Source: a virus (Duplodnaviria; Heunggongvirae; Uroviricota; Caudoviricetes). Taken from it: 12,488 bases of DNA. The stretch lies in the IMG/VR virus record IMGVR_UViG_2698536449_000008, one strand, 5' to 3'. Of the stretch, positions 5,767 to 11,700 are shown one piece after another (position 1 is the first letter of the stretch; every line of letters starts with the position of its first letter). A program made the position numbers.

Positions 5767-8700
5767 TAACGAAAGTATTTAGCGGGCATGAAAATGGCAA
5801 ATAACGGTCAAACATCGTGGCGTTGACANNNCGACGGAAACCACTTACCGCTTCACACAACTGGCGCTGGGGAACTACAGGCTGACAGTCCGGGCAGTAA
5901 ATGCGTGGGGGCAGCAGGGCGATCCGGCGTCGGTATCGTTCCGGATTGCCGCACCGGCAGCGCTGTCGCGGATTGAGCTGACGCCGGGCTATTTTCAGAT
6001 AACCGCCACGCCGCATCTTGCGGTTTATGATCCGACGGTACAGTTTGAGTTCTGGTTCTCGGAAAAGCGGATTGCGGATATCAGGCAGGTTGAAACCACA
6101 GCACGCTATCTTGGCACGGCGCTGTACTGGATAGCCGCCAGTATCAATATCAAACCGGGCCATGATTATTACTTTTATATCCGCAGTGTGAACACCGTTG
6201 GCAAATCGGCATTCGTGGAGGCTGTTGGTCAGCCGAGTGATGATGCATCCGGTTATCTGGATTTTTTCAAAGGCGAGATAGGGAAAACCCATCTGGCTCA
6301 GGAGCTGTGGACGCAGATTGATAACGGTCAGCTTGCGCCTGACCTGGCTGAAATCAGGACGTCCATTACGGATGTCAGCAATGAAATCACGCAGACCGTC
6401 AATAAGAAACTGGAAGACCAGAGTGCGGCAATTCAGCAGATACAGAAGGTTCAGGTTGATACAAATAATAACCTGAACAGCATGTGGGCTGTGAAGCTGC
6501 AGCAGATGCAGGACGGACGCCTTTATATCGCGGGTATTGGTGCCGGTATTGAGAACACCCCTGACGGCATGCAGAGTCAGGTGCTGCTGGCGGCGGACAG
6601 GATTGCGATGGTTAATCCTGCGAATGGCAACACAAAACCGATGTTTGTTGGTCAGGGCGATCAGATATTCATGAACGACGTGTTCCTGAAACGCCTGACG
6701 GCCCCCACCATTACCAGCGGTGGAAATCCATCGGCATTTTCCCTGACTCCGGACGGAAAGCTGACCGCTAAAAATGCGGATATCAGTGGCAGTGTGAATG
6801 CGAACGCCGGGACGCTCAACAATGTCACGGTAAATGAAAACTGTACGATTAAGGGCATGCTGGAGGCGACTCAGGTCAGAGGTGACTTCGTTAAAGCTGT
6901 ATCCAAATCATTTCCGAAACAGGCTGGTACGTGGGGTAACACGGAAACACCAAACGGGACGGTTACAGTCACCATAAGCGATGATCATAACTTTGACCGC
7001 CAGATTATTATTCCGCCCATTATTTTTAACGGTATAGCGTATGACGATCCGGGGAGCGGAAATAACCCAGGAGGCACGCGATACACGGGTTATGGTTTTG
7101 AAGTTCGCAAAAACGGCGTATTAATCGCATCCAGAGAAACTAAAGGTGCCATTCCCGGTAGTTACAGTGCAGTTATTGATATGCCTAGTGGTGGTGGTAG
7201 CGTCACTCTGGAGTTTAAGATTTTCCAGAAAGGCAATCAGGGGGCAGGCAATATCACCGACTGTACGGTGATTGTGACCAAAAAAGCGGCTTCCGGCATC
7301 AGTATTCGTTGAAATATTTATAACCCCAATAAATGGCGTCAGGAATGACGCCTTTTTTATTGCAGAAAAGCGAGAGGTAATTATGCGTAAAGTTTGTGCA
7401 GCCATTTTGTCCGCAGCCATTTGCCTGGCCGTATCCGGTGCGCCTGCATGGGCGTCTGAACATCAGTCCACGCTGAGCGCGGGGTATCTTCATGCCCGGA
7501 CCAACGTTCCCGGCAGTGATGATCTGAACGGGATTAACGTGAAATACCGTTATGAGTTTACGGATACGCTGGGGCTGGTGACGTCATTCAGCTATGCAGG
7601 AGACAAGAATCGCCAGCTGACCCGTTACAGCGATACCCGCTGGCATGAAGATTCCGTGCGTAACCGCTGGTTCAGCGTGATGGCGGGGCCGTCTGTGCGC
7701 GTGAATGAATGGTTCAGCGCGTATGCGATGGCGGGTGTGGCTTACAGCCGTGTGTCGACTTTTTCCGGGGATTATATCCGCGTAACTGACAATAAGGGGA
7801 AAACGCACGATGTGCTGACCGGAAGTGATGACGGTCGCCACAGCAACACGTCTCTGGCGCACTGACGGTTTCATCGTGGGTGTCGGTTATAAATTCTGAT
7901 TAGCCAGGTAACACAGTGTTATGACAGCCCGCCGGTTCAGGCGGGCTTTTTTGTGGGGTGAATATGGCAGTAAAGATTTCAGGTGTACTGAAAGACGGCA
8001 CAGGAAAACCGGTACAGAACTGCACAATCCAGCTGAAAGCAAAACGTAACAGCACCACGGTGGTGGTGAACACGCTGGCCTCAGAAAATCCGGATGAAGC
8101 CGGGCGTTACAGCATGGACGTTGAGTACGGTCAGTACAGCGTTATTCTGTTGGTGGAAGGATTCCCGCCGTCACATGCCGGGACCATCACCGTGTATGAA
8201 GATTCCCGACCCGGTACGCTGAATGATTTTCTCGGTGCCATGACGGAGGATGATGCCCGTCCGGAGGCACTGCGCCGTTTTGAGCTGATGGTGGAAGAGG
8301 TGGCGCGTAACGCGTCCGCGGTGGCACAGAACACGGCAGCCGCGAAGAAATCAGCCAGCGATGCCAGCACATCAGCCCGTGAGGCGGCAACCCATGCGAC
8401 TGATGCTGCAGATTCAGCACGTGCAGCCAGCACGTCAGCCGGACAGGCCGCTTCGTCGGCTCAGTCAGCGTCTTCCAGCGCAGGAACGGCATCAACAAAG
8501 GCCACTGAAGCCTCAAAAAGTGCTGCCGCTGCAGAGTCCTCAAAAAGCGCGGCGGCTACCAGTGCCGGTGCGGCGAAAACGTTAGAAACGAATGCGGCAG
8601 CGTCACAACAATCAGCAGCCACTTCTGCATCCACCGCGACCACGAAAGCGTCAGAAGCTGCCACCTCAGCCCGGGATGCGTCGGCTTCAAAAGAGGCGGC

Positions 8701-11700
8701 AAAATCATCAGAAACGAACGCATCATCAAGCGCCAGTAGCGCAGCTTCCTCGGCGACGGCGGCTGCAAATTCTGCGAAGGCGGCCAAAACGTCCGAGACG
8801 AACGCCAGGTCTTCTGAAACGGCAGCGGGACAGAGTGCCTCAGCTGCGGCAGGCTCAAAAACAGCGGCTGCGTCGTCTGCCAGCGCCGCGTCAACAAGTG
8901 CCGGGCAGGCCTCAGCCAGTGCCACCGCCGCCGGAAAATCGGCAGAAAGCGCCGCATCATCCGCTTCAACAGCCACAACGAAGGCTGGCGAAGCCACTGA
9001 GCAGGCCACGGCAGCAGCGAGGTCAGCTTCCGCAGCGAAGACATCCGAAACGAACGCGAAAGCGTCGGAAACCCGTGCAGAATCCTCAAAAACGGCTGCC
9101 GCATCGTCCGCCAGTTCGGCGGCGTCATCGGCATCATCGGCGTCTGCTTCAAAAGATGAGGCGACCAGACAGGCGTCAGCAGCGAAGGGCAGCGCCACGA
9201 CGGCATCCACGAAGGCGACAGAGGCTGCTGGTAGTGCGACGGCAGCAGCTCAGAGCAAAAGTACGGCGGAATCTGCAGCAACGCGCGCTGAGACAGCGGC
9301 AAAACGGGCAGAGGATATTGCATCCGCCGTGGCGCTTGAGGATGCGAGCACGACGAAAAAGGGGATAGTACAGCTCAGTAGTGCGACTAACAGCACTTCC
9401 GAGTCACTGGCGGCAACACCAAAAGCCGTTAAGGCCGCGTATGACCTGGCTAACGGGAAATACACCGCACAGGATGCAACGACAGCACAGAAAGGGATAA
9501 TCCAGCTAAGCAGCGCGACCAACAGCACGTCTGAAACGCTGGCGGCAACGCCAAAGGCAGTAAAAGCAGCCAATGACAATGCTGAGAAACGTCTGCAGAA
9601 AGATCAGAACGGTGCGGATATCCCTGGCAAAGACACCTTTACGAAAAATATTGGTGCCTGCCGTGCCTTCGGTGGGTCAGTAAGCACAACAACAGGAAAC
9701 TGGACGACTGCACAGTTTATCGAGTGGCTGGATTCTCAGGGAGCATTTAACCATCCATACTGGATGTGCAAGGGTTCCTGGTCTTATGGCAATAATAAAA
9801 TCATTACTGATACTGGCTGCGGTAATATTCATCTCGCCGGAGCTGTCATTGAAGTAATGGGGATAAAGTCAGCGATGACGATCCGCATTACCACTCCGAC
9901 CACATCCAGCGGTGGCGGAACAACCAACGCCCAGTTTACCTATATTAATCACGGAACAGATTATTCACCTGGCTGGCGAAGGGACTATAACTCCAGAAAT
10001 AAGCCAACGGCATCAGAGATCGGGGCGCTACCGTCAGGTGGAACAGCAGTATCATCAGTTAATCTGGCTTCAAAAGGTCGGGTAGCCGCGCTGACAGACA
10101 ATACGCAGGGGGCAGCAGGTCTTGAGTTATACGAGGTGTATAACAACGGATATCCAACAGCGTATGGAAATATCATTCACCTGAAAGGGATGACAGCCGT
10201 TGGCGAAGGTGAGTTACTCATCGGCTGGAGTGGTACAAGCGGTGCTCATGCTCCGGCATTTATTCGTTCACGACGGGATACGACCGACGCAAACTGGTCG
10301 CCGTGGGCGCAGCTTTACACCTCGGCTCATCCTCCTGCAGAGTTTTATCCAGTCGGTGCACCAATCCCGTGGCCATCAGATACCGTTCCGTCTGGTTATG
10401 CCCTGATGCAGGGGCAGACTTTTGACAAATCTGCTTACCCGAAACTTGCAGCCGCTTATCCGTCAGGCGTGATCCCTGATATGCGTGGCTGGACGATTAA
10501 GGGCAAGCCCGCCAGTGGTCGTGCCGTATTGTCTCAGGAACAGGATGGCATTAAATCGCACACCCACAGCGCCAGCGCATCCAGTACGGATTTGGGGACG
10601 AAAACCACATCGTCGTTTGATTACGGCACTAAATCCACGAATAACACCGGGGCGCATACGCACAGTCTGAGCGGCTCTACAAGTTCAGCTGGGGCCCACC
10701 AACATAGTCAGACTGGGCCCAGAACGAATAGCGGGAGTCAACCTACTGGAATGTTTCCGGCAGGGAGTACTCAAGTTAGCGGGACTAATCAGGTTGGTAT
10801 CAGTGGCTCATTAACCAGTGGCACCTCCCAATGGGTAGGTAAATCATCTTCAGAAGGAAACCATACACACTCACTGTCCGGCACAGCAGCATCTGCGGGT
10901 GCACACGCGCATACTGTCGGTATTGGTGCTCATACGCACTCTGTTGCGATTGGTTCACATGGACACACCATCACCGTTAACGCTGCTGGTAACGCGGAAA
11001 ACACCGTCAAAAACATCGCATTTAACTATATTGTGAGGCTCGCATAATGGCATTCAGAATGAGTGAACAAGCACGGACCATAAAAATTTATAACCTGCTG
11101 GCCGGAACTAATGAATTTATTGGTGAAGGTGACGCATATATTCCGCCTCATACAGGTCTGCCTGCAAACAGTACCGATATTGCACCGCCAGATATTCCGG
11201 CTGGTTTCGTGGCTGTTTTCAACAGTGATGAGTCATCGTGGCATCTCGTTGAAGATCATCGGGGTAAAACGGTTTATGACGTGGCTTCCGGCGACGCGTT
11301 ATTTATTTCTGAACTCGGCTCATTACCGGAAAATGTCACCTGGTTATCCCCGGAAGGGGAGTTTCAGAAGTGGAACGGCACAGCCTGGGTGAAGGATACG
11401 GAAGCAGAAAAACTGTTCCGGATCCGGGAGGCGGAAGAAACAAAAAACAGCCTGATGCAGGTAGCCAGTGAGCATATAGCGCCGCTTCAGGATGCTGTGG
11501 ATCTGGAGATCGCAACGGAGAAAGAAACCTTGTTGCTGGAAGCTTGGAAAAAGTATCGGGTGTTGCTGAACCGTGTTGATACATCAACTGCACCGGATAT
11601 TGAATGGCCAGTAGCACCTATAGGGTAAATTCGTAATGATTACCTAAATACGTTATTCTTTTGTTAAAAAAGTGATTTTGCTATAGGTAGGGAGTATGTT

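Follow-up and report, generated by a model that had tools for sequence, protein, structure and literature searches.

A mosaic side tail fibre of a lambdoid prophage, with an in-register coiled-coil shaft, two widespread middle modules and a hypervariable tip as the most likely seat of receptor specificity

A stretch of 12,488 nucleotides (nt) from the virus record IMGVR_UViG_2698536449_000008 (Caudoviricetes), hereafter the window, carries a side tail fibre gene, stf, whose product resembles lambda Stf at both ends and is markedly longer. The question raised by this locus is what the additional protein does and, above all, which part of the fibre decides the receptor. The original prediction, made from the sequence alone, proposed that a Cys-containing insert in the interior of the protein may be an additional receptor- or glycan-binding domain. 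The analysis described here favours another answer: Stf is likely to be a trimeric side tail fibre of a lambdoid prophage, made of six parts and assembled with the assistance of the chaperone Tfa, in which two middle modules, named A and B, would serve as shaft while a variable tip would make the receptor contact. Coordinates refer to the whole window, amino acids (aa) are numbered from the Stf ATG at 7964, and all stf and tfa features given below lie on the plus strand.

The stf gene (7964..11047) is intact. Its open reading frame (ORF) begins with the ATG at 7964 (MAVKISG...), ends with a stop codon at 11045-11047 and encodes 1027 aa without interruption; the earliest start given by the ORF finder is a GTG at 7958. 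The gene was identified from its translation, from Pfam and PHROG searches and from its identity to stf of phage PhiR68_2. Pfam recognised phage_tail_N (PF08400), two copies of Phage_fiber_2 (PF03406) and Collar (PF07484); PHROG matches were to tail fibre families only, and an NCBIfam search with the whole protein found no family. The key homologies have E-values of 1e-70 to 1e-85, so the features of Stf are not chance patterns, and solved relatives together cover the N-terminus (PDB 9E7M), aa 539-723 (8JU3) and aa 794-1027 (2XGF).

As expected from the original prediction, both ends of the protein match lambda Stf: tblastn against the lambda-type phage HK629 gave 73% identity for aa 1-404 and 70% for aa 795-1027, and returned no match for aa ~545-795, the middle segment said to be absent from lambda. 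The StfN tail-attachment domain (aa 1-94, 7964..8245) matches residues 1-94 of chain Ta of 9E7M with an E-value of 1e-51, PF08400 covers residues 1-134 (E 1.4e-71), and aa 1-101 are 93% identical to Ur-lambda, in which StfN 1-91 forms a collar on the tail (PMC12617516). The other end begins with the Collar domain and the first half of a needle stem (aa 796-914, 10349..10705), continues with a hypervariable tip subdomain (aa 915-966, 10706..10861) and closes with the second half of the stem and the C-terminus (aa 967-1027, 10862..11044). PF07484 was found at residues 798-845 (E 7e-12), and aa 795-1027 match 2XGF with an E-value of 1e-81, at 65% identity to residues 813-1026 of T4 gp37. The His-rich, gp37-like character foreseen for this end is borne out by seven His-x-His (HxH) motifs, at aa 866, 898 and 912 in the first half of the stem and at aa 967, 981, 990 and 999 in the second, all of which align with the motifs of T4 gp37, where seven iron atoms are held at His-x-His sites (PMC6957217). 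The mosaic of a lambda-like N-terminus and a gp37-like tip is thus confirmed by homology.

A comparison with the Stf of PhiR68_2 shows where this fibre varies. The two proteins are 95% identical (98% at the DNA level outside the tip; 95% for the DNA of tfa), and segment by segment identity stays at 98-100% from the N-terminal domain through the coil and the repeats to the end of module B (99-100% within modules A and B), is 95% in the collar with the first part of the stem and 98% in the last part of the stem, and falls to 33% in aa 915-966. The same pattern is seen with other relatives: identity to StfR, lambda and StfQ is 19-31% in aa 915-966 and 91-100% in the flanks, that is, 91-97% to lambda and StfR for aa 796-914 and 92-100% to lambda, StfR and StfQ for aa 967-1027. 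A blastn search across the tip interval, 10706-10861, gave no match. In a gapped alignment the tip is positioned at residues 932-959 of T4 gp37, than which it is ~19 aa longer, without sequence conservation. The T4 tip is an insertion in the needle stem, and mutagenesis has identified residues in it that bind lipopolysaccharide (LPS) and OmpC (PMC6957217). Because variation is confined to the tip while modules A and B are conserved, these alignments indicate that receptor specificity most likely sits in aa 915-966, a probable specificity cassette, and not in the middle modules. As the tip is not homologous to gp37 932-959, the receptor is not transferable from T4; by analogy with T4 and Ur-lambda, OmpC and/or LPS would be the prior candidate.

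What, then, is the middle of the protein? The reconstructed Ur-lambda Stf has 774 aa, which puts the excess at 253 aa, in agreement with the ~250 aa first estimated; it is composed of +105 aa in the coil, +160 aa in the middle and -12 aa in the C-terminal part. The distance from an AVALED anchor to the collar is 343 aa here, 183 in lambda and 452 in StfR, and on this sequence comparison the middle segment appears to replace the hinge/distal segment of lambda and is not a pure insertion. The "insert module" therefore stands as a distinct segment absent from lambda, but not as an insert, since 343 aa take the place of 183. This segment comprises two separable domains. Module A (aa ~546-690, 9599..10033) is a domain of Mu S', P1 S' and P2-like fibres, recognised from its match to 8JU3, and contains Cys 566, 602 and 619, the only other Cys of Stf being C20; module B (aa ~691-795, 10034..10348), recognised from matches to P1 Sv' and stfQ, is a second beta-rich fibre domain that ends in a W..W..YT motif. 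The several Cys and lower G+C content (GC) ascribed to this segment were both recovered, GC being 0.49-0.52 in the middle module vs 0.62 in the Ala/Ser-rich region that precedes it. Codon position 2 (0.77 in the coil) accounts for most of the GC gap, which hence reflects amino-acid composition; at the third position the values are little different (0.52 vs 0.49 and 0.43). A foreign origin of the module on the basis of its GC was rejected on these grounds, with no clear foreign-DNA signal.

Over its core, module A is about 80% identical to residues 178-362 of 8JU3, the S' (gp52) fibre of phage Mu in its G(-) form (PMC11821841). Homology to the proximal domain of Mu and P1 Sv' is thus present in this Stf, with 73-77% nt identity of module A to Mu Sv', P1 Sv' and a P2-like fibre and ~70-82% identity to the Mu S', P1 and P2-like fibres at the protein level. 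Past module A, Mu S' has a segment distantly related to module B (49% over aa 538-792, in an alignment that includes module A). The match to module B in P1 Sv', at 70.6% nt identity, precedes module A there, and this reversed order indicates that the two modules shuffle independently. Window positions 10086-10348 are 100% identical at the nt level to the stfQ remnant of the K-12 Qin prophage, within a longer alignment (10083-11611) of 90.5%; other tblastn matches to module B are in the jumbo phage Goslar, in Vibrio phages and in an Acinetobacter gp37-like fibre. The P1 Sv' fibre itself (2362-3919 of the segment examined) consists of a module B-like domain, then the linker and module A, and then a Mu-type tip.

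In an AlphaFold2 (AF2) model, modules A and B are globular beta-rich domains. The monomer model of aa 525-810 has a predicted local distance difference test score (pLDDT) of 62 overall and of 80-90 in the cores, with the inter-domain linker and module B weak, and is too uncertain for an analysis of surfaces or pockets. Among structural relatives of the module segment, only the Mu gp52 fibre was found, with no lectin or carbohydrate-binding module (CBM) fold; the 8JU3 structure was reportedly described by Mori et al. 2024, Virology 593:110017. Searched with the modules, neither Pfam nor NCBIfam gave a family above threshold, and Pfam gave none for module A alone; across the A/B boundary there is a sub-threshold Pfam match to Gp34_trimer (18.3 bits vs a cut-off of 27). 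The comparison with T4 gp34 and gp37 that had been proposed was informative for the His-rich end, which matches gp37; modules A and B gave no match to T4 gp34, gp35, gp36 or gp37 by blastp or phmmer. Each of the modules, as well as the Mu S' module after A, ends in a similar short motif (9950-10033 for A and 10290-10348 for B) with the pattern W..(R/E/P)..Y(N/T)...(K)P.A.(E/D)(I/V)GA, which suggests a domain-terminating element, maybe a recombination or fold boundary.

Module DNA is common in E. coli: of 5426 complete genomes, 800 contain at least 80% of it, for the most part with an identity of 95% or higher, and the whole stf is covered to at least 80% in 636 of the same 5426. Several phage isolates, too, have whole-gene matches, under the annotation "side tail fiber protein". 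By tblastn the module was detected in 152 phage records, from phages of Escherichia, Yersinia, Salmonella, Shigella, Vibrio, Aeromonas and Shewanella; for module A, identity is 65-85% in most of the enterobacterial phages listed (Escherichia, Yersinia, Salmonella, Shigella) and drops to about 40-57% in those of Vibrio and Aeromonas. When 1.84 billion representatives of clusters formed at 50% identity were searched exhaustively with phmmer, 1001 module clusters came back at E <=1e-3, 230 of them at E <=1e-30, and the matches are internal in proteins of 300-3600 aa, with up to 6 matched stretches per protein. The segment is therefore a standard and widespread fibre module, yet it forms distinct domains; the outcome that the original prediction had named as contrary to it, a ubiquitous part of Stf proteins with no distinct domain, has largely come about as regards distribution and not as regards the domains.

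These data bear directly on the proposal that modules A and B (aa ~546-795) are an extra receptor- or glycan-binding domain, a second and lateral site beside the gp37-like tip. The segment does form globular, beta-rich domains with confident cores, in the S' fibres of Mu and P1 it is situated in the variable, host-range part, and the middle cassette has been swapped between StfR and this otherwise near-identical Stf. Nevertheless, modules A and B are 99-100% identical in the PhiR68_2 Stf despite its other tip, module A is conserved across host genera, unlike a specificity determinant, and the modules are internal and repeated in long fibres and belong to no Pfam or NCBIfam family at threshold. 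Together with the lack of a lectin or CBM fold among the structural matches, this makes the proposal unlikely in our view. A variant of it starts from the conservation of module A across many enterobacterial and marine phage fibres, for which a constant ligand, and not structure alone, could be the reason: the module would then be a lateral site for a conserved envelope component, e.g., the LPS inner core, and the fibres would be bivalent, combining a conserved low-affinity contact with the variable tip. To this variant, too, we give a small chance. Modules A and B as parts of the shaft, with the specificity determinant in the tip, remain the preferred reading of the middle segment.

The remaining length difference lies in the proximal shaft. 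Downstream of StfN, aa ~102-460 (8267..9343) form a coiled-coil shaft, probably trimeric, according to their heptad register, the AF2 model and homology to lambda, in which Ur-lambda Stf 102-393 is the proximal coiled coil of the trimeric fibre as seen by cryo-electron microscopy and tomography (PMC12617516). The stretch had been described as a low-complexity spacer of ~345 aa rich in Ala, Ser and Thr. The composition is as stated (A+S+T is 73% of the 345 aa from 116 to 460, with no Cys), but the region is not of low complexity: the autocorrelation of Ala peaks at lags of 7, 14, 21, 28 and 35 residues, the Fourier peak is at 3.5 residues, and all 24 SAxxA motifs fall in a single heptad register across the 345 residues. 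From the single sequence, AF2 models one continuous helix over aa 98-477 with a mean pLDDT of 75. Tandem Repeats Finder detected no DNA tandem repeat in the region, so its periodicity exists only at the protein level. It is clear that this stretch is an uninterrupted, in-register heptad coiled coil homologous to that of lambda.

Between the anchors EEVARNAS and AVALED there are 344 aa in this Stf, in K-12 StfR and in PhiR68_2, compared with 239 aa in Ur-lambda; the excess of 105 aa is exactly 15 x 7, that is, 15 heptads. A gap between 8872 and 9177 in the blastn alignment with lambda-type stf places the extra heptads at approximately 8873..9176. The expansion of the coil is an in-register lengthening of a rigid shaft, by ~15 nm if the standard helix rise is applied, and not low-complexity drift.

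Between the coil and module A lie the two copies of a motif that the original prediction had rightly described as kept in the protein and diverged in the DNA. The motif is part of a 44-aa Phage_fiber_2 (PF03406) unit, present once in lambda, once in K-12 StfR and twice in this Stf. Copy 1 (9339..9445; core 9359-9439, aa 466-492), assigned through PF03406, repeat family D4 and its identity to StfR, is followed by copy 2 (9471..9577; core 9491-9571, aa 510-536), which over 107 nt is 74% identical to copy 1 in DNA (74-77% among the comparisons made). Of the 27 aa of the core, 25 are shared, against 62 of the 81 nt; third positions agree in 10 of 27 codons, and 15 of the 25 conserved codons differ synonymously. 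So low a third-position identity beside a protein motif kept at 25/27 could be taken to mean that the copies arose by a recent local duplication and were actively recoded against recombination. The relatives of each copy speak against this: copy 1 has 95% nt identity to the single K-12 stfR copy, while copy 2 has 87% to the stfR copy plus linker and 83% to that of lambda, and the motif is an ancient PF03406 unit that different fibres carry in different numbers (1, 2, 5). Judged from these sequences, old divergence under purifying selection, or descent from different donors, would explain the pattern without recoding, and active recoding is most improbable. The natural copy-number series of the unit is extended to five by the P2-like phage vB_EcoM-12474III, whose fibre (1511-3439 of the segment examined) has five tandem 44-aa units, then the linker and module A. 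That conserved linker (aa 542-555, 9587..9628) was defined by comparison with StfR, Mu Sc/Sv' and the P2-like fibre; past it StfR, Mu S', the P2-like fibres and this Stf diverge, StfR after GADIPxK.

Taken together, the homologies suggest how the fibre would work. Three Stf chains would dock on the tail, in the region of its tip, via StfN, as demonstrated in lambda and presumed here, and a coiled coil of ~53 nm (~360 aa) would project the distal part away from the tail. The two 44-aa Phage_fiber_2 units and the two knob-like modules A and B would lengthen the shaft, as spacing domains rather than determinants of specificity. Tfa would assist the folding of the gp37-type collar and needle, which, by analogy with T4, could be stabilised by seven metal ions coordinated by His, and the variable tip (aa 915-966) would be displayed for reversible contact with an outer-membrane receptor. 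Several points weigh against this picture. The functions of its segments are assigned by homology. In K-12, StfR has a different middle cassette of ~355 aa in an otherwise near-identical fibre, which means that natural exchange affects the middle region as well and that this region could take part in host interaction, and the 'variable', host-range part (Sv') of the Mu and P1 fibres includes module A. In addition, the prophage looks decayed in this window, so a functional phage may make no use of the fibre in this genome.

The nearest relatives place this Stf in a familiar group. The same full-length architecture, in the same J-lom-stf-tfa context, is found in PhiR68_2, in mEp460, in the Stf of Salmonella phage SPF_0923 and in the E. 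coli 'prophage tail fiber N-terminal domain-containing protein'. With the OmpC-binding Stf of Ur-lambda it has in common the heptad coil, one Phage_fiber_2 unit and the collar and needle (91-92% identity); it differs by the 15 heptads, by one more fibre repeat, by a tip of 25% identity and by modules A and B in place of the Ur-lambda hinge/distal domain (about aa 394-525). StfR of the K-12 Rac prophage (1120 aa) is 97-99% identical over aa 1-460, with a coil of the same length, and 97-100% identical in collar and stem, but has one fibre repeat and the other middle cassette, which begins after GADIPxK; the Qin StfQ remnant retains 95-100% aa identity in collar and stem, and the tips of both StfR and StfQ differ from this one (19-31%). 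Mu S' (gp52), P1 Sv' and P2-like gpH variants have the linker, the fibre-repeat unit and module A in common with this Stf; they are myovirus baseplate fibres with their own N-termini, another distal tip and the chaperone U', whereas this Stf, compared with Mu S', carries a gp37-type collar and needle and a lambda-type Tfa instead of the S'-type tip and U'. T4 in turn has the collar, the seven HxH motifs (D10-D11 of gp37, 2XGF) and, in gp38, a relative of Tfa, while nothing in gp34-gp37 resembles modules A and B or the coiled coil.

This Stf is ordinary and belongs to an already known, well-populated type of mosaic side tail fibre; with annotated, near-identical copies present in phage isolates and in E. 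coli genomes by the hundred, it has little significance as a novelty. Mosaicism of fibres among lambda, P2, Mu, P1 and T4 has reportedly been known since the early 1990s (Haggard-Ljungquist et al. 1992; Hendrix and Duda 1992; Sandmeier 1994). Its value is rather that of a practical map. The in-register heptad coil, the GADIPxK linker and the boundaries of modules A and B are natural junctions for chimeras, and the 52-aa tip cassette (aa 915-966), variable between otherwise identical fibres, is the obvious target for a host-range swap. Such a map applies to the engineering of chimeric Stf, as in lambda-derived delivery particles (PMC11338833).

The surroundings of the gene identify the region as the J-lom-stf-tfa end of a lambdoid prophage: a C-terminal fragment of J (6188-7312) is followed by lom (7383-7865), stf (7964-11047) and tfa (11047-11628). 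The tfa gene (11047..11628) encodes a tail fibre assembly chaperone of 193 aa with a Caudo_TAP domain (PF02413, E 4.6e-44), has 93% nt identity to lambda tfa and encodes a protein with 31% aa identity to T4 gp38 (E 4e-19). The window holds two such tail-end cassettes, the first interrupted and the second with the intact stf. In the first, a complete lom (2724-3323) is followed, within window positions 3345-5828, by a second N-terminal fragment of stf, of 122 aa and more divergent (PF08400 E 1.5e-36). This fragment is cut by an IS21-family insertion element at ~3695-5828, with istA at 3800-4972 and istB at 4969-5769, which is 100% identical to copies on E. coli plasmids of ~290 kb. The J gene of the first cassette is split into overlapping ORFs (27-650 and 620-2656), both with Ig_J domains, which could be a frameshift or a sequencing error. 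In the second cassette only the last 374 aa of J are left and lom (Ail/Lom) is shortened to 160 aa, so that the prophage with the intact stf looks decayed. The distance from the start of lom to the start of stf is about 80 nt shorter than in PhiR68_2.

From this decayed context it is plausible that stf and tfa are a non-functional relic here, a recombination reservoir for incoming phages from which no fibre is made. The first cassette is cut by the IS21-family element, the second has lost most of J and part of lom, an IS1 end lies at the right edge of the window, and none of the complete E. coli genomes covers 80% or more of the window. Still, stf (1027 codons) and tfa (193 codons) are both uninterrupted, and Stf is 95% identical to the protein of a phage isolate (98% at the DNA level outside the tip), as is the DNA of tfa (95%). 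We regard the relic as a real possibility, held tentatively and somewhat short of an even chance. It concerns the use of the fibre in this host and not the identity of the protein, and is compatible with our preferred explanation, a Tfa-assisted mosaic fibre with its receptor contact at the tip.

In Rac, Qin and PhiR68_2, a pinQ/pinR-type invertase gene lies on the opposite strand ~100 nt past tfa, and in Mu and P1 the corresponding segment is on invertible DNA. In contrast, no invertase gene of this type was found 3' of tfa within the window (11629-12488), and a search for Gin/Pin (gix-like) crossover cores gave 1 match vs 0.35 expected, inside J, which is the chance level. The AT-rich stretch 3' of tfa contains a run of 266 N (11871-12136), masked or unresolved, and the very low GC there is an artefact of this run. 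Finally, the last ~30 nt of the window (12459-12488, GGTGATGCTGCCAACTTACTGATTTAGTGTA) resemble the left end of IS1; the coding sequence of an IS1A transposase begins 25 nt past the equivalent point in E. coli strain 104.

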